Virus record (IMG/VR): IMGVR_UViG_2660238580_000001
Coordinates: 1 to 37,504 of that record
DNA: 37,504 nucleotides
DNA from: a virus
Lineage: Duplodnaviria > Heunggongvirae > Uroviricota > Caudoviricetes
Reading direction: 5' to 3' (one strand)
This document shows, piece by piece, positions 1 through 36,872 of the stretch. How positions within the stretch are numbered: the first letter of the stretch is position 1; each line of letters opens with the position of its first letter. The notes beneath the pieces were generated by a model. It was not told the DNA's origin and did not search any database. It saw nothing but the letters and a program-made list of their open reading frames with translations. The position numbers and the translations under genes were made by a program.

Positions 1-1254
1 ATGCTGGAACAAATGGGCATTGCCGCGAAGCAAGCCTCGTATAAATTAGCGCAACTCTCCAGCCGCGAAAAAAATCGCGTGCTGGAAAAAATCGCCGATG
101 AACTGGAAGCACAAAGCGAAATCATCCTCAACGCTAACGCCCAGGATGTTGCTGACGCGCGAGCCAATGGCCTTAGCGAAGCGATGCTTGACCGTCTGGC
201 ACTGACGCCCGCACGGCTGAAAGGCATTGCCGACGATGTACGTCAGGTGTGCAACCTCGCCGATCCGGTGGGGCAGGTAATCGATGGCGGCGTACTGGAC
301 AGCGGCCTGCGTCTTGAGCGTCGTCGCGTACCGCTGGGGGTTATTGGCGTGATTTATGAAGCGCGCCCGAACGTGACGGTTGATGTCGCTTCGCTGTGCC
401 TGAAAACCGGTAATGCGGTGATCCTGCGCGGTGGCAAAGAAACGTGTCGCACTAACGCTGCAACGGTGGCGGTGATTCAGGACGCCCTGAAATCCTGCGG
501 CTTACCGGCGGGTGCCGTGCAGGCGATTGATAATCCTGACCGTGCGCTGGTCAGTGAAATGCTGCGTATGGATAAATACATCGACATGCTGATCCCGCGT
601 GGTGGCGCTGGTTTGCATAAACTGTGCCGTGAACAGTCGACAATCCCGGTGATCACAGGTGGTATAGGCGTATGCCATATTTACGTTGATGAAAGTGTAG
701 AGATCGCTGAAGCATTAAAAGTGATCGTCAACGCGAAAACTCAGCGTCCGAGCACATGTAATACGGTTGAAACGTTGCTGGTGAATAAAAACATCGCCGA
801 TAGCTTCCTGCCCGCATTAAGCAAACAAATGGCGGAAAGCGGCGTGACATTACACGCAGATGCAGCTGCACTGGCGCAGTTGCAGGCAGGCCCTGCGAAG
901 GTGGTTGCTGTTAAAGCCGAAGAGTATGACGATGAGTTTCTGTCATTAGATTTGAACGTCAAAATCGTCAGCGATCTTGACGATGCCATCGCCCATATTC
1001 GTGAACACGGCACACAACACTCCGATGCGATCCTGACCCGCGATATGCGCAACGCCCAGCGTTTTGTTAACGAAGTGGATTCGTCCGCTGTTTACGTTAA
1101 CGCCTCTACGCGTTTTACCGACGGCGGCCAGTTTGGTCTGGGTGCGGAAGTGGCGGTAAGCACACAAAAACTCCACGCGCGTGGCCCAATGGGGCTGGAA
1201 GCACTGACCACTTACAAGTGGATCGGCATTGGTGATTACACCATTCGTGCGTAA
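1..1254 (+). CDS. proA: gamma-glutamyl phosphate reductase (host core gene)
   Basis: Full 417-aa ORF from ATG at 1; translation matches my recollection of E. coli ProA end to end ([11 protein letters not shown] ... GDYTIRA); followed by thrW as in the E. coli chromosome. Confidence 0.96.
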
Positions 1255-1368: not shown

Positions 1369-1444
1369 GCCGATATAGCTCAGTTGGTAGAGCAGCGCAT
1401 TCGTAATGCGAAGGTCGTAGGTTCGACTCCTATTATCGGCACCA
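1369..1444 (+). tRNA. thrW: tRNA-Thr (anticodon CGU)
   Basis: 76-nt sequence GCCGATATAGCTCAGTTGGTAGAGCAGCGCATTCGTAATGCG...GGTTCGACTCCTATTATCGGCACCA with D-loop, anticodon loop containing CGT, T-loop GGTTCGA and 3' CCA; sits just downstream of proA. Confidence 0.93.
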
Positions 1445-1458
1445 TTTAAATCAATAAG

Positions 1459-2622
1459 TTACACATCATTTGTACCTTCCTTATTTTTTGACTGGGACAA
1501 ATTTGGGACCGATGGGTTCAGGATCGAGTCTATTTGCCGTGCGTGTTCGGTAAGGTGATTAGGTGCAAGGTGAGCATATCGACGAACCATTTCGATAGAC
1601 TCCCAGCCTCCCATTTCCTGTAACACTGACAACGGGACTCCGGCTTGAACCAGCCAACTTGCCCAGGTGTGTCTCAAGTCGTGAAATCTGAAATCATCAA
1701 TACCAGCCCGTCTCAGCGCCGCTTTCCAGGCTGTGTTTGCGTCATACCGCATCTTCCTTACTGTTGGCGCTTTCGTTCCGTCTGGTTTGGTACAGCTTTC
1801 CTTGTACACAAATACCCAACGGTGATGATTCCCGATTTGTTTTTTCAATACGCGACATGCAGTATCATTCAGCGCAACGCCAATTGCGCGGTTTGATTTA
1901 CTCTCTTCCGGGTTTATCCATGCCACCCGGCGCTGCATATCTATTTGTTGCCATTCAAGGTTGATGATGTTCGAGCGTCTTAAGCCTGTTGCCAGTGCAA
2001 ATTCAACAACAGACTTTAATGGCTCCGGACATTCATCAATCAGCCTTTGTGCTTCATGGGGCTCCAGCCAGCGGATCCGTTTATTCTTTGGTTGAGGCAC
2101 TTTAATAATTGGTGCCTTATCCAGCATTTTCCATTCACGCTCTGCGGCTCTTAGTAGGGCCTTTATAAATGAAAGATGCGTAGCCTTCGTTGCAACGGAC
2201 GCTGGTTTTGGCGTGTATTCTGGAACAGGTTTCCCTTTTTTTCTGCATGCTTCTGCCCTGAGTTTCCAGTTTTCCTCATGACGCCGGTTCGTCATTTTCT
2301 GCATTGCTGAATAAATTTTTGATTCAGTAATGTCTCTTAGTTGCATTCCTGCGAAATGTTGAAGCCAGAATCCGATCCGGCTTTTGTCATCGTCCAGTGA
2401 TTTTTTATGTGCTTTCTCTTCAAGCCACCTGACACACGCTTCCTCGAACGTTATATCAGGTATTTCACCAAGTTTGCTGACCCGCCATGCTTCAGCCTTT
2501 AGCTTGTCATGGAGTTCTGTCGCCTGCCTTTTGTCCTTTGTTCCAAGAGACTGTTTAAATCTTTTACCGTTCGGCAATGTGAAACTGGCGTACCATATTT
2601 CACCTCTGCGGAAGAGTGACAT
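1459..2622 (-). CDS. int: Tyrosine site-specific integrase, P22-like
   Basis: 387-aa ORF; C-terminal catalytic region with HDLRHTWAS ... RYAHL motifs typical of tyrosine recombinases; resembles my recollection of phage P22 Int, which uses thrW as attB. Confidence 0.94.
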
Positions 2623-2849
2623 TTTCTTTCCTCTGTTATGCCATCACCCGCGCTCACCTGGACAGTATGCAGCGGAGACTGAAGAGCCGCAATGCAGGCT
2701 TGTCGTGTTGTGAGGTAAGGAGATTTATTCTTAGTGGGATCTTTGCGTGTTGCCTGAAGACGCCCTGTGCGTATCCAGTTAATGGCAGTCGGTCTGGATA
2801 TCTTGAGAAAATGACAGGCCTCATCGAGTGTGAGGCTGTATGGCTCCAT
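2499..2849 (-). CDS. xis: Excisionase (P22 Xis-like, 116 aa)
   Basis: Internal Met start [33 protein letters not shown] of the 144-aa ORF gives 116 aa; ATG overlaps the stop of the upstream gene; 3' end overlaps int start in another frame. Confidence 0.75.
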
Positions 2850-3154
2850 TATTTCACCTCTTGCTGTGAGATTTTTGAGAAATGGATACCAGCTCGTTGC
2901 TGCCAGACGATCCAACCGAGAGTCATATTCCATGCCATGTATTCGTTATCGCCGTTTTTTGCTCTCCGACGATCTACTAAGTCACCAAAACGCTTTTCCA
3001 TGAATAATTCATAAGCTTCGCGTTCATCTGGTTCTACTTCCAGAGATAGGAGTGCGATTTCATAAGCACGGCGCTCAATATCGTCTCGCACGTCAAGGCT
3101 GCTGATACGCTCTTTAATTTCTTTAATCAGTTCTTTGTCGGTAAAAGTGGTCAT
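2849..3154 (-). CDS. Hypothetical early-left operon protein (101 aa, acidic)
   Basis: ORF with start/stop overlaps to its neighbours (translational coupling); protein-like composition; no family recognised. Confidence 0.5.
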   Translation of the reverse strand: MTTFTDKELIKEIKERISSLDVRDDIERRAYEIALLSLEVEPDEREAYELFMEKRFGDLVDRRRAKNGDNEYMAWNMTLGWIVWQQRAGIHFSKISQQEVK

Positions 3155-3516
3155 TATGCTCCAGCCTCCGGTGCTTTTGGCATTACTGCCCAGTGAGTGA
3201 TATTGACGTTTTCAAGGTCCCCGACCTGAAATGTCCACTGCCATTCTCCGGTTTCTTTTTGTCCCCAGGTGTACCAGAGAGAACGCCAGCCAATTAGCCA
3301 GCCTTCTCCGTTAGCATCGAATAACAAAACACTTTCATTTGCTGGTGGCAGTTCAGTTGACACTGGTATTACTTTGTTTTCCTGTGCTGCACATTTAGCT
3401 TCAAGCGCATCGAATTTACGCACTAGGTATTCAGCATCCGTTTCATTCACTTTCAGATCTCGCGGTACACATCTCCCACGAAGAAACCCTTCCATTTCGA
3501 AAACATTCATGCGCAT
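3154..3516 (-). CDS. Hypothetical phage protein with Trp-rich C-terminal region (possibly DUF551-like)
   Basis: 120-aa ORF, coupled to neighbours; C-terminal GWRSLWYTWGQKETGEWQW is reminiscent of small prophage proteins; family assignment uncertain. Confidence 0.5.
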   Translation of the reverse strand: MRMNVFEMEGFLRGRCVPRDLKVNETDAEYLVRKFDALEAKCAAQENKVIPVSTELPPANESVLLFDANGEGWLIGWRSLWYTWGQKETGEWQWTFQVGDLENVNITHWAVMPKAPEAGA

Positions 3517-4043
3517 TTGCGTAACTCCGATAATTCGTTAAAGCGTTCCATAAACATCCCGTAGGCATGGCCTGGAGCCAGTGGAATCACGTTGAACATC
3601 TCTGTTGCCGGGATACCTTCCAGCACAGGCCAGAAAGAGCCATCATCAAGCCCGAGATCGCGGCGTTCGGTTGCCAGCATAATGAGATCGGCATATTTCA
3701 CTGGCGTGCTCATAACAGGAGGTAACCCGTATTTCTCACGGATTACGGCGTCTATTTTTTCTTCCATCCGTTTATAGTCAGGAAGAAGTCGTTTCAGTGG
3801 TGCGGGGATGTCCTGGCAATATGCTTCTGTTGCATCATGCATTAAAGCTTCAAAAGCAAATTCCTGCGGCACCAGCTGGCTGCAAAGCACCGCATGTTGG
3901 GCGACGCTGTAGAAGTGAGAAAGATGACCGGCAAAGCGGCAGATATTTGAAAGGGAAACCGCGATATCGTTAATAACGATGTCGTCTTTATTTATCTTGT
4001 CATAATAAAAATGCTTCCCGGAAAAAGTTTTAATAAATGACAT
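3507..4043 (-). CDS. HD-domain phosphohydrolase
   Basis: Internal ATG at 4043..4041 preceded by GGAG; H...HD metal-binding signature (NICRFAGH, LMHDATEAY). Confidence 0.7.
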   Translation of the reverse strand: MSFIKTFSGKHFYYDKINKDDIVINDIAVSLSNICRFAGHLSHFYSVAQHAVLCSQLVPQEFAFEALMHDATEAYCQDIPAPLKRLLPDYKRMEEKIDAVIREKYGLPPVMSTPVKYADLIMLATERRDLGLDDGSFWPVLEGIPATEMFNVIPLAPGHAYGMFMERFNELSELRKCA

Positions 4044-4106
4044 TTCGTTCTCCACTTTATATGCGCTGCACCGCGCTGAATTTTGGGAAAAGGAAGCCCT
4101 CACCAT

Positions 4107-4588
4107 CCGGCGATTATTGAGTCAATTACGTTTCAATAGATGCCCCCGCAGGGGCGGTTAGTTTCTCCACAAAACAGAGAAGAACACCTGCGGTGGCAGC
4201 CGCCCGGATGGATTGGGTTATGAGCCCGTCGTCCGGTGATGCTCTTCTCTGTTTTGTAAAAAGGACGGTACCAGCCGGAAGCAAGGGTACAAACTGGTAC
4301 CGCCAGGACTACACACAGCATAAAGTTGTGGTGCCGGGTGCCTCCCGGTGCCTGGCGAAGGTTGCACACCAGGCGGGTGGGTATCCACAGAAGGTCGACT
4401 GTCAGCCTCAACCTTAACCCGCGTGCGCTGAGCCGCATTCACCACAACGCTAAGGATTCTCTCTGGTTGAAAATACTTAGCTGTTATGTGCCTGCTTTTA
4501 GCCACATCAGGCGAGGTGGACCTGGTTATTCCCCAACAACAAGGATTCGGTTAATCTGGTTATCCCCAACAACGCAAAAGGAAAAGAA
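4107..4588. other. GC-rich, highly structured non-coding island (candidate structured RNA or regulatory region)
   Basis: No credible ORF; 15-bp perfect inverted repeat ACAAAACAGAGAAGA (4169-4183 / 4243-4257) around a 59-nt GC-rich loop; further hairpins (GGTACCAG/CTGGTACC at 4267-4274/4294-4301; GCCCC-CGCA-GGGGC at about 4142-4155). Confidence 0.35.
4522..4573 (+). repeat. Two direct repeats CTGGTTAT(T)CCCCAACAAC just upstream of the 4589 ORF
   Basis: Copies at 4522-4540 and 4556-4573, spaced 34 bp, ending 15 nt before the ATG; second copy contains TTATCCCCA (one mismatch to a DnaA box, TTATCCACA). Confidence 0.35.
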
Positions 4589-5023
4589 ATGTCCGGTAAT
4601 ATCTACACGCTGTACAAATCCCACTGTGAAAATGTTGGAAAGTATCGGGGCATTGAAATCAGTGGGGTAGTGTCATCAGTCGAAATAAGCAAAGTCGAAT
4701 CAAGGGCAACATTACTTACTCTTCTGGACCTTGTCTTACATGAGCACCGGAAGAAATTCGGCACTCCCTATAATCAGTTGAATGGGAAAAAGGCTCTGGT
4801 TCACCTTATTCTGATGAAGCATCACTGGATGCCAAAACAGATTAATGAGATGAAATTTGATGAACTTCTTCTTTCAATTCAGGATGAACTCACACTTGAT
4901 AAAATAAGCGTAACCGCCCAGAAATTTTTAGATTATCGAGACTGGAGATCACAAATTCATCACTTTGATGATTTTGACGAAAATGAATGGGATCCTAATT
5001 TGTCTGCACAATATCTAAAGTAA
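4589..5023 (+). CDS. Hypothetical protein (144 aa), AT-rich moron-like gene opposite in orientation to the early-left operon
   Basis: ATG at 4589 preceded by AAGGAAAAG; long ORF in AT-rich DNA; a plus-strand intrinsic terminator lies downstream at 5261-5284. Confidence 0.6.
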   Translation: MSGNIYTLYKSHCENVGKYRGIEISGVVSSVEISKVESRATLLTLLDLVLHEHRKKFGTPYNQLNGKKALVHLILMKHHWMPKQINEMKFDELLLSIQDELTLDKISVTAQKFLDYRDWRSQIHHFDDFDENEWDPNLSAQYLK

Positions 5024-5201
5024 CATCCTGTGATAAAACCGTGATTTCCTGATCCAGTTTTTTTAAGGAGTCTATTATTTCCTGTCGATAAGACAGCACT
5101 TCACGAAGCTGGTTTATAGCTGCCAGCTTCTTTGCCATCCACTCGTAAATTTCCTCATTTGTGTATCCGGGCGCGACGATTTTGGGTTCTGTTTTGTGCA
5201 T
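4995..5201 (-). CDS. Hypothetical small protein (68 aa), first gene downstream of PL-like promoter
   Basis: ATG at 5201..5199 preceded by GAGGAGG at optimal spacing; track ORF 4995..5216 trimmed to this start. Confidence 0.55.
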   Translation of the reverse strand: MHKTEPKIVAPGYTNEEIYEWMAKKLAAINQLREVLSYRQEIIDSLKKLDQEITVLSQDVTLDIVQTN

Positions 5202-5260
5202 TTCACACCTCCTCAAGTTATCAGTTACTTGTTGATGGGGACCAGATTGTTAAAGAGCTA

Positions 5261-5284
5261 AGCGTCCTGTAGGGCGCTTTTTTG
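5261..5284 (+). terminator. Intrinsic terminator (plus-strand specific)
   Basis: AGCGTCCT-gt-AGGGCGCT hairpin followed by TTTTTT; the reverse complement lacks a U-tract. Confidence 0.55.
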
Positions 5285-5359
5285 TTGCTAACGAATCATC
5301 CTGGACTTCATATGCCCCAGGCGGCTACTTCGTGGGCGTTCTGCCTGTTTGTTGTTTCT

Positions 5360-5400
5360 CTTGGGTACATTATGTATCTCAAGGGTACATTGTCAAGTAT
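5360..5400 (-). promoter_or_regulatory. PL-like promoter with OL-type operator repeats
   Basis: On minus strand: -35 TTGACA (5396..5391), 16-bp spacer, -10 CATAAT (5374..5369); two ATGTACCC repeats overlap it, sharing the TGTAC half-site with the cI/cro operators. Confidence 0.5.
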
Positions 5401-5435
5401 AAAAAAACCTGCCGAAGCAGGTTCATAAACATTGA

Positions 5436-6110
5436 TTAGGCTTTGATTTTGTATCTTCTTGGTTTTCCTGAGAAAATCACAGTTCCAATTATAGAGCAAT
5501 TACCGTTGATCTTAATGTAAGGCTCAGGCCAGTTTGGGTTTAACGCTTTGAGATAACGCTGTGTCCCATCTTCTATCAACCTTTTGAAGGTGGTTTCACC
5601 TGTATCGTGCATCAATGCAATAACGTCGTCACCGTGGCAGGCAGGTACTTCAGGATCGACAAAAATCATGTCTCCCGGGCGGTACTCATCAATCATTGAA
5701 TCACCTATCACCCGCAAGATATAAGTCATTTCCCCACAGGGTACAGGGCAGGGATACGTTTCTGCTGTGCTCAAATCAACCTCAGAATATCCAACTTCTT
5801 TCCATGCTCCGGCCTGTACCCATGATATGACAGGGACTAATGTGATTTGTTTATTAGTGATTGAAACATCAGGTTTTTTTGTGATGTTCGTTGTCTGGTG
5901 TTCTTGATCGAGCCATCCGACAGGCAGGTCGAAACATTTTTCGATGTGTCGTGCCATGCTGTCACCGATATTTTTAGTAGCACCATCTCCCATAAACCTG
6001 CTGGTCTGGGTTGGCTCGCGATCAATCATAGTGGCAAAGGAAGAATTCCCGCCAACACCATCTCTCAGTTTTCTGGCGTTAGACCGCCGGATGTCATGGA
6101 TTGTTTTCAT
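5436..6110 (-). CDS. cI-like prophage repressor (HTH plus LexA/S24-type autocleavage domain)
   Basis: 224 aa; N-terminal HTH region and C-terminal S24 peptidase-like domain (GDSM serine motif, conserved Lys near C-terminus); ATG at 6110 has no SD and lies 15 bp from an operator, suggesting a leaderless mRNA as for lambda cI. Confidence 0.88.
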   Translation of the reverse strand: MKTIHDIRRSNARKLRDGVGGNSSFATMIDREPTQTSRFMGDGATKNIGDSMARHIEKCFDLPVGWLDQEHQTTNITKKPDVSITNKQITLVPVISWVQAGAWKEVGYSEVDLSTAETYPCPVPCGEMTYILRVIGDSMIDEYRPGDMIFVDPEVPACHGDDVIALMHDTGETTFKRLIEDGTQRYLKALNPNWPEPYIKINGNCSIIGTVIFSGKPRRYKIKA

Positions 6111-6124
6111 AACGAAATTAAAAC

Positions 6125-6196
6125 CCTTGTACCGTTAAGGTACAAGTATCTTGAAGGTTCATTTCAATCATGTAATATGTACACTGGAGGTACATA
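6125..6196. promoter_or_regulatory. OR-type operator/promoter region between cI and cro
   Basis: Palindrome CTTGTACC-GTTAA-GGTACAAG (6125-6145) and ATGTAC-N7-GTACAT (6176-6194); rightward promoter TTGAAG (6150-6155)-N16-TAATAT (6172-6177). Confidence 0.6.
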
Positions 6197-6200
6197 TCGT

Positions 6201-6401
6201 ATGAAAGCGTATTGGGACTCTTTAACCAAAGAACAGCAGGGCGAGTTGGCCGGAAAAGTTGGCTCAACACCTGGCTACTTACGGCTGGTTTTCAATGGCT
6301 ATAAAAAAGCCAGTTTTGTGCTGGCTAAAAAACTTGAGCAATGCACGTCAGGTGCAATTACGAAATCTGACTTAAGACCGGATATCTATCCGAAAGATTA
6401 G
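6201..6401 (+). CDS. cro: Cro-like HTH regulator (66 aa)
   Basis: ATG at 6201 preceded by GGAGG (6186-6190); small basic HTH protein MKAYWDSLTKEQQGELAGKVGSTPGYLRLVFNG; divergent from the repressor. Confidence 0.8.
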   Translation: MKAYWDSLTKEQQGELAGKVGSTPGYLRLVFNGYKKASFVLAKKLEQCTSGAITKSDLRPDIYPKD

Positions 6402-6432: not shown

Positions 6433-7002
6433 ATGAGGCTAATCGTGGGTAAGCATCACTGGAAAATAGAAAAACAGCCTGAGTGGTACGTGAAAGCTGT
6501 CAGAAAAACTATCGCGGCGTTGCCGGGTGGTTACGCTGAAGCGGCTGACTGGCTCGATGTAACAGAAAACGCTTTATTCAACCGCCTTCGTGCAGATGGC
6601 GATCAGATTTTCCCGCTGGGATGGGCAATGGTTTTACAGCGTGCTGGTGGCACTCACTTCATTGCTGATGCTGTGGCGCAGTCTGCAAATGGCGTCTTTG
6701 TGTCTCTTCCTGACGTCGAGGATGTGGACAACGCCGATATTAACCAGCGTCTGCTGGAAGTCATTGAACAGATCGGCAGTTATTCAAAACAGATTCGTTC
6801 AGCAATCGAAGACGGTGTAGTGGAACCGCATGAGAAGACAGCAATTAACGACGAGCTGTATCTCTCAATTTCGAAGCTGCAGGAGCATGCAGCACTTGTC
6901 TACAAAATTTTTTGCATTTCAGAAAGTAATGACGCCCGCGAGTGTGCAGCTCCGGGCGTCGTGGCGTCGATTGCTTCTGGTTGTGGAGAAACTAACGCAT
7001 GA
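6433..7002 (+). CDS. cII-like regulatory protein (YdaT / CP76-type)
   Basis: 189-aa ORF immediately after cro, the usual cII position; resembles YdaT-like prophage proteins from memory; family not confirmed. Confidence 0.5.
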
Positions 7003-29686: not shown

Positions 29687-29696
29687 CGGAGTGTAT

Positions 29697-31025
29697 ATGA
29701 CGTGGAAAGACAGGCTTCAGGATGCGTCATTTCGAGGTGTGCCGTTTAAGGTTGAAGAAGAAAGTGCGGGAACCGGCCGTCGTGTGGAAACACACGAATA
29801 TCCGAACCGCGACAAACCCTATACCGAAGATCTGGGAAAAGTCACTTTCCGCCCGTCCATCACGGCTTATGTGGTGGGAGATGACTGCTTTGACCAGCGC
29901 GATCGCCTGATTGACGCGCTGAATAAACCCGGTCCCGGCACGCTTGTCCACCCGACATACGGTGAGCTGAAAGTCTGTGTTGACGGGGAAGTTCGGGTCA
30001 GCACATCGAAGAGTGAAGGGCGTATTGTCCGCTTTGACCTGAAGTTTGTCGAAGCGGGAGATCTCTCTTACCCCACATCAGGCGTGGCGACGGCGCAGAC
30101 GCTGATGTCATCCTGTTCTGCACTGGATGACTGCATCAGTGACAGCTTCAGCGGTTTCAGTATCGATGGCGTGGCGGATTTTGTGCAGAACGACGTTATC
30201 GGTAATGCCAGCACAATGCTTGGGTATGTTTCTGATGCGATGAAAGTGGTGGATTCTGCCGTATCGGATGCCGCCAGGCTGTTGCAGGGGGATATCTCGG
30301 TACTTCTGCCGCCACCATCGTCAGGCAAAAATTTCGTTGAGCAGGTGCAGAAAATGTGGCGTACCGGGAAACGCCTTTATGGTAACGCCAGCGACCTGGT
30401 CACCATGATCAAAACGCTTTCCGGTGTCAGCCTCGGCAGCGATCTGCAACCGCGCGGCGTCTGGAAAACGGACAGTAAAACCACCGCCACGGCGACGCAG
30501 CAGCGTAATGTGGTTGCCAGCACTCTTCGTACGACCGCAATCAGCGAAGCGGCGTATGCCGTCACCCGATTGCCTGCGCCAACAACTTCCGCGGTGATGC
30601 AGAATGCCACAGTGGGGCAGTCAACAACACCCGCGCAGAGCACCGGCTGGCCTTCTGTCACGCATCCGGCACTGAACAATGCACCGGCGGTGAAAAACAC
30701 GGTTGACCTGCCAACGTGGGAAGAACTGACCGACATTCGCGACACACTGAATACGGCAATTGATAAGGAGTTGTCCCGTACAACCAGTGATGCGCTGTTT
30801 CTGGCGCTGCGCCGGGTGAAAGCAGATCTGAATGCGGATATCAACACGCGCCTTGAACAGTCTGCACGGATCATTCAGCGCACGCCGGATGAGGTTTTAC
30901 CCGCGCTGGTGCTGGCGGCGACCTGGTTTGATAACGCGGCGCGTGACGCGGACATTATCCGGCGTAATGCCATTACGCATCCCGGCTTTGTGCCGGTGAT
31001 CCCTCTGAAGGTGCCAGTGCAATGA
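29697..31025 (+). CDS. DNA circularization protein (Mu N-like)
   Basis: ATG at 29697 after GGAG (track ORF starts at a GTG at 29691); position after tape measure as in Mu-like tails. Confidence 0.8.
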   Translation: MTWKDRLQDASFRGVPFKVEEESAGTGRRVETHEYPNRDKPYTEDLGKVTFRPSITAYVVGDDCFDQRDRLIDALNKPGPGTLVHPTYGELKVCVDGEVRVSTSKSEGRIVRFDLKFVEAGDLSYPTSGVATAQTLMSSCSALDDCISDSFSGFSIDGVADFVQNDVIGNASTMLGYVSDAMKVVDSAVSDAARLLQGDISVLLPPPSSGKNFVEQVQKMWRTGKRLYGNASDLVTMIKTLSGVSLGSDLQPRGVWKTDSKTTATATQQRNVVASTLRTTAISEAAYAVTRLPAPTTSAVMQNATVGQSTTPAQSTGWPSVTHPALNNAPAVKNTVDLPTWEELTDIRDTLNTAIDKELSRTTSDALFLALRRVKADLNADINTRLEQSARIIQRTPDEVLPALVLAATWFDNAARDADIIRRNAITHPGFVPVIPLKVPVQ

Positions 31026-34119: not shown

Positions 34120-34694
34120 CAAACGATGATTACATCCGTCTGTTGTCGGCACTGCTGCCGCCCGGTCCGGCGTGGTCAGCCAGCGATCCGGCGATTGCCG
34201 GTGCAGCACCGTCATTAACCCGCGTTCATCAGCGTGCGGATGCCCTGATGCGGGAGCTGGATCCGCGCACCACCACCGAACTGATAAACCGCTGGGAGCG
34301 TCTGTGCGGCCTGCCAGATGAATGTATTCCTACAGGGACACAGACCCTTCGCCAGCGTCAGCAACGGCTGGATGCGAAGGTTAACCTGTCGGGTGGCATC
34401 AACGAGGATTTTTATCTTGCACAGCTTGCTGCCCTGGGCAGACCAGATGCTACCATCACGCGATACGACAAAAGCACGTTCACCTGCTCATCGGCCTGTA
34501 CTGACGCTGTGAACGCGCCTGAATGGCGGTATTACTGGCAGGTCAACATGCCAGCCGCCACCAACACCACCTGGATGACATGTGGTGATCCCTGTGATTC
34601 CGCACTGCGCTTCTGGGGGGACACCGTTGTCGAGTGTGTTCTTAACAAACTCTGCCCGTCGCATACCTATGTGATTTTTAAATATCCGGAGTAA
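34110..34694 (+). CDS. Tail protein (Mu gp48-like)
   Basis: 194 aa; conserved position immediately before the tail fibre gene. Confidence 0.72.
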
Positions 34695-34697
34695 TCC

Positions 34698-35354
34698 ATG
34701 CATCGTATAGACACGAAAACCGCGCAGAAGGATAAGTTCGGCGCGGGTAAGAACGGTTTTACCCGTGGTAACCCCCAGACCGGCACGCCTGCCACCGATC
34801 TGGATGATGACTACTTTGACATGTTGCAGGAAGAGCTTTGTGGCGTGGTGGAGGCATCCGGTGCCAGCCTGGAGAAGGGGCGGCATGACCAGCTGCTTAC
34901 CGCGCTTCGTGCGCTGCTGTTAAGCCGCAAGAATCCGTTTGGCGATATCAAATCGGATGGCACGGTGAAAACGGCTCTCGAAAACCTTGGTTTGGGAGAA
35001 GGTTCGGCATTACCCGTTGGCGTGCCTGTTCCGTGGCCTTCCGCTATTGGTCGCTTCGGGTTTTTTGTTTGCGGTGGTGGCTCTTTTTCTTTTGCATCAT
35101 GTTTTGTTCTTGAGTGGGGCTCTCTGGGCGCTCCATTGCTTGCTTTGGGTGTTGTGTTTCTTTTTGGGTTTGCTTTTGGGCGTGGATTTGTTCGTGTTTT
35201 TGTTTTATTAGCGTATCCAGCGGATGGCGTGGTTTTTGGTTATCTTGGCTTTGCTGGTTTTGTTGGGTCCGTTGTTAATTTTCTGTCTGGAGTCGGTCCT
35301 GTTGTCTTTGGCGCTTCATTTTTAGCGTTAGGCTGTTCATTTGGTTTTGTTTAG
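34698..35354 (+). CDS. Tail fibre protein: conserved N-terminal region intact; C-terminal part inside the invertible segment is aberrant (likely non-functional in this orientation)
   Basis: Typical tail-fibre N-terminus (MHRIDTKTAQKDKFGAGKNGF ... PVGVPVPWPSA); after the crossover site at about 35000 the reading frame continues as Gly/Phe/Val/Leu-rich low-complexity sequence. Confidence 0.55.
   Translation: MHRIDTKTAQKDKFGAGKNGFTRGNPQTGTPATDLDDDYFDMLQEELCGVVEASGASLEKGRHDQLLTALRALLLSRKNPFGDIKSDGTVKTALENLGLGEGSALPVGVPVPWPSAIGRFGFFVCGGGSFSFASCFVLEWGSLGAPLLALGVVFLFGFAFGRGFVRVFVLLAYPADGVVFGYLGFAGFVGSVVNFLSGVGPVVFGASFLALGCSFGFV
34975..35000. repeat. gix/hix-like recombination site (left), within the tail fibre gene
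   Basis: CTCTCGAAAACC-TT-GGTTTGGGAGAA, a 26-bp imperfect palindrome resembling Hin/Gin crossover sites; its reverse complement matches the first 14 nt of the right site. Confidence 0.6.
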
Positions 35355-36872
35355 TGGTCTATGAGTTACATAGTTTTTACTTATACCACTGGTGGAAGAA
35401 ATGGTGCTGAATCAGTGAGTTCACCTGATGCCTCCTCTTTGCTTGATGATGCTGTTGAAGTTGATGTGGCATTTTCTTTTGTGTTTTGGGGTTTATCGTG
35501 GATTGGGCCGTTTTGTATCGCTGGTTTATCTGGTTTTCGTGCGTGGTTCTTACTGTTTATAACTATGATGGTGAAACACGGGAATATATTTTCACATCAA
35601 CTGAATATCTTGCTGTGGGTGTCGGCATTCCGGCATGCTCCTGTTTAGATGCTTGTTACTGCTGTTATTGTTGTTATGCAATCTGCCGTTCTGCAGATTT
35701 TAACTTTTTGGTTTGTTTGCCTGGCCGCCGTGGTGCTGGTGTATATTTCCGTTGCGCCGGATATTGAATGGCCTTCGCCTCTGGGGGTTCTTGCCCTGTG
35801 ACTTCCGGCGCTGTGGTGGTGTTTGTTGCCTTCGCTGCGTGGGTTTGTTCGAGCTGGGTGTTCGGTCGTGTGGTTTCTGCTTGCGTCGGCTTCGGCGCGG
35901 CCTGCGCTTTGCGTTGGTTCCTGCTTGTTGCTGCCATTGCTTTCTTCATTCTTGTTTGACTGTGTTTTTCTGCCGGGTGTACTGTGGCGCAGTGCTGTGC
36001 CTCCGTATTTGTCGCTGTTTTGTCTTCCTTTGATTTGTTGACTGGCGTTAACGGGGCGATAGTGGTTGTATTTTCAGGGTATTCACCCGGGGCTGTGATT
36101 TCTTTTGATTCTCCTGTTTCAGTGCTATATACCGTTTCACCACGGTGGTCTGGCACATATACCCATGATTTTATTTCTGCAGTTCGTCAGCTTTCATACG
36201 CCGCTTTGTCTGTTTCCGGGGCCATTGTTTACTGTTCATATAATCGTTGGCCTGATTAATCAATTGCTGCTTCTCCAATTCGGCTGTATTCCTTTGTTTC
36301 TCCTTTGTTGTTGTTGGCATTTCTGTTTCTTGCGTGGGTGGCTTTTCTTTCGTTATTTGGTTTTTTGTTTTCGGTTGTGCTGCGGTCACGTTATTCTCCA
36401 CTTGCTGGTTCCGTGGTCTGGTTTCTTTTGTTCATGAGTCAGCTTGAGTGTAATCCTCTTTCATCTCCAGCGGATAGAAAGAGTTTGTAGTCGCGGAATC
36501 TCTTTCATTGTTTTTTCAGTCCTTCTCGCTAACTTTTTTTGCTGATGCTAAAATTGTTTCGTCGGGTCTAGGCTTTTTTGTTCTGTATGTGATTTTAGTC
36601 GGTTCGGGCCTTTTTGTAGGTATTCCATGATTATGAGAAATTACTGCATGTTGTTTGTTGTTTTGTGAGGTCCGACCGCTCTGCCCTCTGTTTGGGTCTT
36701 CCCTGGGGCGATTGGTTTCTCCATGTTGTTCAGTGCCTTTATTTGTCGGATAAGCCTTTGCCAGTTCCGGGTATTCTTGTGCTTTTTGATCTGCAGTGTT
36801 TGATTTCGGCCGGGTTGTTGTCGGCGTGTCAGGTATCTGATTCGCCCCTGTCCCTACATTCCTTTTAGCCGC
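35001..36872. other. Invertible (G-segment-like) DNA segment with extreme strand-asymmetric base composition
   Basis: Bounded by inverted gix-like sites next to a serine invertase. Hand counts in 60-nt samples (A/C/G/T): 2/11/20/27, 5/6/17/32, 5/6/19/30, 1/18/20/21, 2/9/16/33. Overlapping stop-free ORFs occur on both strands. Confidence 0.6.

Follow-up and report, generated by a model that had tools for sequence, protein, structure and literature searches.

Why should a gene lie within the early-left operon of a lambdoid prophage and yet be read against it, in a place where transcription from the early leftward promoter (PL) would run antisense across it? The question is raised by a plus-strand gene of 144 amino acids (aa) in the stretch 4,589 to 5,284 of a tailed-phage genome (Caudoviricetes), IMG/VR record IMGVR_UViG_2660238580_000001, whose full 37,504 nucleotides (nt) were analysed and are called the window below. 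We found that the arrangement is the known sieB-type layout, as in phages lambda and P22, with a different and uncharacterised cargo. In our reading the 144-aa gene is carried as cargo by a sieB-type accessory ('moron') unit, and we give this explanation as a whole, including its mechanism and the likely role of the protein, a probability of about 0.7.

The evidence that carries this reading lies directly upstream of the gene. The sequences ahead of sieB in lambda and P22 have in common with positions 4488-4588 of the window a block, TGTGCCTGTCTTTTAACCACRTCAGGCTCGGTGG, a -10 region, GGATAAACT, and two C-rich direct repeats. When the upstream regions of eight phages were aligned (P22, lambda, Hafnia phage Pocitis76, Klebsiella phages Kp4866-6 and Kp4882-1, PhiR29_1, Salmonella phage F1055 and the window), 51 columns were invariant over about 100 bp, and the window was 70% identical to P22 over the block. 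The annotated P22 promoter (29690-29720 of BK000583) maps to about 4527-4557, and the P22 RNA start (29727) to about 4564. The same upstream block is found ahead of true SieB genes (Pfam PF14163) in Pocitis76 and Kp4866-6, and PF14163 is matched by the cargos of P22 and Kp4866-6. The position is also that of sieB: in lambda, sieB (34482-35036, plus strand) abuts the end of N (35037-35438, minus strand), and in P22 the plus-strand sieB, whose promoter and RNA start are annotated, faces gene 24 on the minus strand. In the window the 144-aa gene is likewise opposite the PL strand, inside the early-left operon and convergent with the first gene read from PL. Homologous promoter, position and orientation thus place it behind a sieB-promoter homologue in the sieB slot. 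We also considered whether the direct repeats belong to a ToxIN-like type III toxin-antitoxin system, and rejected this: there are only two repeats, they are elements of the promoter and 5' untranslated region (UTR) that also occur at sieB promoters, and no terminator separates them from the gene.

The gene itself is well defined. The preliminary description of this DNA had credited it with a good ribosome-binding site and an AT-rich composition, had placed a 68-aa gene leftward of PL and convergent with it, and had named a true coding frame on the minus strand as what would speak against it; the features were borne out, and this last condition did not hold. A ribosome site, AAGGA (4578-4582), precedes the ATG by 6 nt, and the GC content is 38.6%, compared with 39.6% for the cassette, 50.9% for the window and 56.4% for the noncoding stretch left of the cassette. 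When the gene was compared with an Escherichia albertii allele that shares 78% of its nucleotides, the differences were spread 31/15/50 over the three codon positions. Read in the called plus frame they give 34 synonymous and 41 non-synonymous codon changes, more synonymous ones than in any of the other five frames, and by this pattern a true frame on the minus strand was rejected. The length of the open reading frame (ORF) is maintained in homologues down to 52-56% identity. The 68-aa ORF has its own ribosome site, GGAGG, 6 nt before its ATG, and its 3' end shares 29 bp (4995-5023) with that of the 144-aa ORF. Its product matched PHROG 1744 (E 1.8e-33) and was 38-39% identical over 66 aa to ydfC of PPompW and other lambdoid phages (tblastn, E 3e-8); judged by this similarity and by its place in the early-left operon, it is a member of the YdfC family. 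Its changes relative to E. albertii are synonymous in 12 cases and non-synonymous in 8. Both ORFs are genes. The E. albertii YdfC-like gene (1070-1312 of its locus) carries one extra A in an A-run, by which its last third is frame-shifted and its overlap with the 144-aa gene lengthened, which reflects either an assembly error or a C-terminus under relaxed constraint.

The 144-aa protein is identical to SfIV_36 of Shigella phage SfIV. It matched NCBIfam NF033230 ('ECs1072 family phage-associated protein') over residues 4-144 with 157.8 bits (E 1.7e-46; curated cutoff 70 bits) and PHROG 5286 with an E value of 1.5e-90, and is by these profile matches a member of the ECs1072 family, an uncharacterised family. 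A profile search of 1.84 billion representatives gave 76 relatives at 50%-identity clustering, nearly all of them 145-155 aa long. One homologue in the family, 56% identical, is a plus-strand gene among the minus-strand early genes of a RecE-type prophage, an analogous antisense position, with related sequence upstream. Structure prediction gave an all-helical fold (AlphaFold2, predicted local distance difference test score, pLDDT, 78.5); the product would be a soluble helical protein, and it is not SieB. In cultures of Escherichia coli O157:H7 Sakai, the level of ECs1072 has been reported to change -2.13-fold across growth transitions (PMC2241611). Relatives of about 92 aa, 29-32% identical to residues 52-144, have their genes elsewhere in the genomes of ST64B (sb50, 36438-36713) and of Klebsiella phages KPP5665-2 and KpF5, which suggests that the C-terminal domain also exists alone.

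Downstream, the unit is closed by a terminator that works in one direction. On the plus strand it forms an 8-bp stem with one G.U pair, followed by U6 (-12.0 kcal/mol); on the minus strand the G.U pair becomes an A.C mismatch, the U-run is missing and the energy is -7.5 kcal/mol. The E. albertii variant keeps the stem only by way of a second U.G pair, which on the other strand would again be an A.C mismatch, and because this natural variant retains the stem in that manner, a plus-strand-specific terminator is supported by comparison as well as by folding. The preliminary description had presented the terminator as functional on the plus strand only and as belonging to the 144-aa gene. Its first half holds by stem and U-run alike; the attachment to the gene does not, as 237 nt, and with them the whole 68-aa gene, separate the stop codon from the terminator. 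The terminator recurs downstream of unrelated cargos, and by that conservation it is part of the slot and not of the 144-aa gene. In most other cassettes it follows within 30-40 nt of the cargo. With the YdfC-like gene inside the plus-strand unit, the 144-aa mRNA must therefore carry a 237-nt 3' part that is antisense to it.

This last feature invites another explanation, namely that the plus-strand unit is mainly an antisense RNA, silencing leaky PL transcripts in the lysogen as a lock on lysogeny, with the 144-aa ORF secondary. Over all its 237 nt the 3' part is complementary to the YdfC-like mRNA and the transcript has to cross the whole 68-aa gene, the 3' ends of the two genes overlap, and antisense control is known at the P22 locus (see below). 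However, the clear codon-position pattern and the conservation of the ORF, at maintained length, down to 52-56% identity speak against it, and most other cassettes have no minus-strand gene between cargo and terminator, so antisense to ydfC is not the general purpose of the unit. We regard this alternative as improbable.

That the flanks form a unit of their own is seen from the range of genes that they enclose. The same promoter and terminator flanks were found around at least ten unrelated cargos, among them a 171-173-aa protein with a coiled coil and a zinc ribbon (PhiR29_1, Kp4882-1 and E. coli strains), a 159-164-aa membrane protein, a 167-aa protein, a 170-aa protein with a signal sequence, small proteins in SfV, 118970_sal3 and phiES15, true SieB in Hafnia and Klebsiella phages, and a BssS-family protein in Salmonella phage F1055 (2070-2321 of the locus; PF13991, E 6.5e-17). 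The BssS family is named for a biofilm regulator. Ten of the other cargos were compared with the PADLOC defence models, and none matched. When 5,426 complete E. coli genomes were searched, the whole window-type cassette was found in 408, and the region, in part at least, in 1,123, many of which have both flanks around a different cargo.

The cargos are also bracketed by an inverted repeat. It was found in the window, in nine of the other loci compared and in about 100 IMG/VR loci, and its left arm doubles as the second of the two direct-repeat copies (4515-4533 and 4549-4567). Conservation extends over the outer seven bases, AATCTGG / CCAGATT, whereas the inner bases vary with the cargo and yet remain complementary, as in the pairs AATCTGGATGACT / AGTCATCCAGATT, GTAACCCTC / GAGGGTTAC and AATCTT... 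/ ...AAGATT. Over 23 distinct arm pairs, 87% of the cells were paired and both sides had changed in 7 of the 14 base pairs, a level reached by none of 500 shuffles. The right arm is absent in P22, lambda, Kp4866-6 and F1055. Counts of G.U pairs, 14 versus 8 or 14 versus 20 depending on the length counted, favour neither strand, and a transcript start derived from P22 would leave the outer half of the left arm outside the plus-strand mRNA. The repeat may form a helix between distant parts of the PL read-through RNA, may clamp the 5' and 3' ends of the mRNA together, or may be a signal for cassette exchange.

Such arms could also be recombination sites, and the cassette a mobile or invertible element whose promoter reads either the 144-aa gene or the YdfC-like gene. 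Repeats that covary around every cargo would fit this idea, as would the ends of the window-type cassette, each of which carries an arm, a ribosome site and an inward ATG, and the G.U counts without strand preference fit a role at the DNA level. An invertible switch was not supported: neither the 5,426 complete E. coli genomes nor any IMG/VR contig held a flipped junction. The cassettes are found at one locus only and a genome has a median of one copy; beside the cassette no dedicated recombinase is encoded, no consistent target-site duplication flanks the repeats, and the inner arm sequences differ between cargos, contrary to what one shared recombinase site would require. Among the alternatives that we weighed, this one appears the least likely, and very unlikely in itself.

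Facing the unit is PL. The preliminary description had proposed a PL-like minus-strand promoter with operator repeats, and a near-consensus TTGACA-16-CATAAT with an overlapping palindrome was indeed found. Two sites in the cI-cro interval (6127-6145 and 6177-6195) belong to the same type of palindrome, and the window holds five matches to this type where 0.9 would be expected by chance. A palindrome that matches the cI-cro sites and overlaps PL points to repressor control, under which PL therefore most likely stands. The 5' end of the PL transcript would form a structured leader RNA of 64 nt, kept in 68 phage records (Escherichia, Salmonella, Klebsiella, Yersinia, Pectobacterium and others). 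In 59 distinct sequences its three-helix structure had 94.3% of the cells paired, with both sides changed in 9 of 14 base pairs; none of 500 shuffles reached this level and slid controls had at most 45% paired. The element had no match in Rfam. A covariance model built from it matched neither putL nor putR of HK022 (E up to 10), nor any second copy within the window, including downstream of the early rightward promoter (PR), and membership of the HK022 put family is thus unsupported. No N gene lies between PL and the cassette in the window, and this absence makes a cis-acting read-through function an attractive idea, for which we consider the leader RNA a candidate.

From this anatomy we infer the timing of expression, the interference and the function of the protein as follows. 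An independent plus-strand unit would oppose the PL operon of an SfIV/SfV-like prophage. Its weak promoter would drive transcription from about 4564, with translation from the AAGGA site, and the terminator would stop the plus-strand transcript before it reaches PL and enters cI in antisense. In the lysogen, CI would shut PL through the operator, so that in our proposal the plus-strand unit would be the sole active transcript here and its protein would be made from the prophage. Upon induction or infection, PL would fire and its structured leader RNA would be made; the transcript would pass the terminator, inert in that direction, the YdfC-like gene would be translated, and the RNA would go on in antisense across the 144-aa gene and the promoter ahead of it. 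Expression of the 144-aa gene could then be lowered or reshaped by collision and by pairing of the two RNAs, in the manner of the sas RNA on P22 sieB. According to PMC7067206 and PMC12197685, P22 sieB is a prophage-expressed exclusion gene and the antisense sas RNA, complementary to the start of sieB, switches its translation. Mutual interference, which the preliminary description had drawn from the convergent arrangement together with a possible lysogeny-specific expression, therefore has a direct precedent, and for expression in the lysogen as well the precedent of P22 is experimental. The interpretation given in that description is thus supported in its essentials, although it had not named sieB. 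As to the 144-aa protein, its role would most likely be prophage-expressed superinfection exclusion, abortive infection or another form of lysogenic conversion.

The protein could instead be made constitutively or early in lytic growth, for anti-defence, host takeover or Esc-like self-protection, and its orientation would then be a by-product of its acquisition. The lack of any defence-family or fold match for the protein is compatible with this, and so are the remote relatives of residues 52-144 that lie elsewhere in ST64B (sb50) and in Klebsiella phage genomes. However, the promoter is homologous to that of the prophage-expressed sieB, the slot is interchangeable with SieB, and strong PL transcription would oppose a gene needed in lytic growth. 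We find this alternative unlikely, although less so than the two discussed above.

A number of observations weigh against the sieB-type reading. A consensus sigma-70 scan gave no plus-strand promoter and the -35 region of the sieB-type promoter is poor, while the transcript start near 4564 is a prediction transferred from P22 only. The distance between the gene and its terminator has been described, and no Esc-like in-frame internal start is evident in the 144-aa gene, which differs in this from P22. The protein matched no Pfam family, and hence not PF14163 of SieB; neither it nor the 68-aa protein matched a defence model of PADLOC-DB 2.0 (E up to 1), and fold comparison gave the 144-aa protein no significant structural neighbour. 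With these searches negative, an exclusion or defence role would be suggested by position alone. The BssS-family cargo of F1055 also means that the slot is not confined to exclusion or defence.

Taken together, the sieB-type unit, the arms and the leader RNA allow a more speculative picture, which we offer tentatively and hold doubtful in its entirety. The sieB slot of SfV-like and related lambdoid prophages would be a modular plug-in system, in which a fixed weak promoter and a one-way terminator serve unrelated single-gene cargos. The complementary cargo ends would form a long-range RNA helix, acting as an mRNA clamp or looping the antisense cargo out of the PL transcript for processing, or would guide exchange at the DNA level. 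The ECs1072-family protein would be a new exclusion or abortive-infection effector, and the PL-leader RNA a new protein-independent antitermination element for read-through of the cassette.

The features of the locus and its surroundings are collected in Table 1. The window is an SfIV/SfV-like lambdoid prophage at tRNA-Thr beside proA, with an immunity region 98.7% identical to that of SfIV and close to that of SfV. The repressor gene lies on the minus strand and the cro-like and CII-type genes on the plus strand, and early leftward transcription is therefore on the minus strand.

Table 1. Positions of the features discussed in the text, in window coordinates.
Feature	Position	Strand	Basis or remark
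proA	1-1254		at the window start
tRNA-Thr(CGT)	1369-1444		
Integrase gene	1459-2622	minus	
HD-phosphatase gene	3507-4043		
Probable STnc100-like prophage small RNA (sRNA)	4256-4478	minus (PL strand)	Rfam RF02076; DicF-like terminator hairpin at its end (~4262-4306)
Conserved block, TGTGCCTGCTTTTAGCCACATCAGGCGAGGTGG	4488-4519	plus	just upstream of the promoter; also upstream of sieB in lambda, P22, Hafnia and Klebsiella phages
Predicted sieB-type promoter, -10 region GGTTAATCT, weak -35	4527-4557	plus	homology to the annotated P22 sieB promoter
Left arm of inverted repeat, AATCTGGTTATCCCCAACAAC	4553-4573		overlaps the -10 region and the start of the 5' UTR
144-aa gene, ECs1072 family	4589-5023	plus	NCBIfam NF033230, PHROG 5286, codon-position test
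68-aa YdfC-like gene, first read from PL	4995-5201	minus	PHROG 1744, ydfC similarity
Right arm of inverted repeat, GTTGATGGGGACCAGATT	5228-5248		just upstream of the terminator
Rho-independent terminator, AAGCGTCC-TGTA-GGGCGCTT then TTTTTGTTGC	5260-5289 (hairpin 5260-5279, T-run to 5289)	plus	
Predicted structured leader of the PL transcript, outer helix around two hairpins	5290-5353	minus	covariation, 59 distinct sequences
Predicted PL promoter, TTGACA (5396-5391), 16 nt, CATAAT (5374-5369)	5369-5396	minus	consensus scan, 11/12 matches
Operator-type 19-bp palindrome, ATGTAtCTCAAGGGTACAT	5372-5390		overlaps the PL promoter
Terminator-like hairpin and T-run	5405-5424	minus	directly downstream of cI
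CI-type repressor gene, Peptidase_S24 domain	5436-6110	minus	Pfam PF00717, E 1.5e-26; annotated cI in SfIV and SfV
cro-like gene	6201-6401	plus	
CII-type gene	6433-7002	plus	

Left of the cassette, the minus-strand RNA matched the full length of the Rfam model RF02076 with 43.1 bits (E 1.2e-7), below the gathering score of 47, and is probably a divergent relative of STnc100. STnc100 and PasD have been treated as prophage sRNAs (bioRxiv 10.64898/2026.05.13.724894). We also considered that positions 4144-4588 could be a long structured plus-strand leader of the 144-aa gene, and rejected it: the GC-rich region is the minus-strand STnc100 match with its minus-strand terminator hairpin, and P22 homology puts the transcript start much nearer the gene. 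A long hairpin at 4169-4257, with 25-nt arms that are 84% complementary, lies in a separate module (4144-4305), which alone is common to Stx2c-converting phages, mEp460, cdtI and others at 94-96% identity. In ST64B and mEp460, the interval of about 700-800 nt from the YfdP-like gene to PL (locus coordinates 2466-3280 and 3478-4200) has no cargo gene and is a chain of long hairpins, with modules in common with the window. The ST64B transcriptome study (PMC7067206) reports that the noncoding RNA STnc1310, which may be the counterpart of this noncoding region, is induced together with repressor-adjacent genes.

The window also differs from SfIV and SfV. It is without the 1.4 kb or so that hold the YfdQ-like and YfdP-like genes (SfIV_33, orf32), and the HD-phosphatase gene is almost directly joined to the noncoding RNA region (4044-4143 compared with 1225-2500 of the SfIV locus). 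A perfect 16-nt inverted repeat, GTTAGTTTCTCCACAA / TTGTGGAGAAACTAAC, stands at 4157-4172 and 6981-6996, 2.8 kb apart, and encloses the whole immunity region from the left of the sRNA to the end of the CII-type gene; a chance occurrence of such a match in 3.5 kb is unlikely.

As first described, the locus is an ordinary case of a 30-year-old paradigm, that of a prophage-expressed gene set against the PL operon. What the comparison would add, for an uncharacterised family present in about 8% of complete E. coli genomes, is a promoter, a likely state of expression and a role that can be tested. In phages of Escherichia, Shigella, Salmonella, Klebsiella, Cronobacter and Hafnia, the sieB promoter is a common platform from which at least ten small proteins, unrelated to one another, would be expressed, and the cargos of the slot make up a short set of candidates among which new functions in exclusion or lysogenic conversion may be sought. 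The parts that a specialist might find surprising are the inverted repeat and the PL-leader RNA, both of which covary. If functional, they would bear on how temperate phages insulate, process or exchange accessory genes, and on how phages without N achieve read-through.

Several known systems resemble parts of this locus. The leader RNA recalls the put element of HK022 (PMC9378689), a structured RNA of about 65-70 nt just downstream of PL in a lambdoid phage that, like the window, has no N gene between PL and the cassette; put, however, consists of two consecutive stem-loops, whereas the window element is an outer helix around two hairpins. The dicBF operon of Qin (ydfA-ydfB-ydfC-dicF-dicB) has the same succession of an early-left YdfC-family gene and a processed or terminated sRNA. 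The window differs in having an oppositely oriented gene between the two, and its sRNA would be of the STnc100/PasD lineage and not DicF. The accessory hotspots of temperate phages, those of P2/P4 (Rousset et al. 2022, PMC9122126) and the 'morons' (PMC3594210), also keep conserved flanks around single AT-rich genes that are unrelated to one another and have promoters and terminators of their own. Here, in contrast, the locus is the sieB slot of lambdoid phages, none of the cargos compared matches a catalogued defence family, and the cargos are bracketed by a covarying inverted repeat. Lambda sieB has the same orientation and place and the same conserved upstream block; its cargo is another one, and lambda uses N and nutL where the window phage carries a different leader RNA. 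With the sieB/esc/sas locus of P22 there are differences in the product, which in the window is unrelated to SieB, has no membrane segments and is 144 aa long against 192 aa in P22, in the first PL gene, YdfC-like in the window and the N-type gene 24 in P22, and in the separate terminator and bracketing inverted repeat that P22 lacks. The likeness extends nonetheless to the homologous upstream block, the promoter and the paired C-rich direct repeats, to a plus-strand gene in the PL operon that converges with the first PL gene and in the window, too, would be expressed from the prophage, and to a PL transcript that would yield RNA antisense to it.

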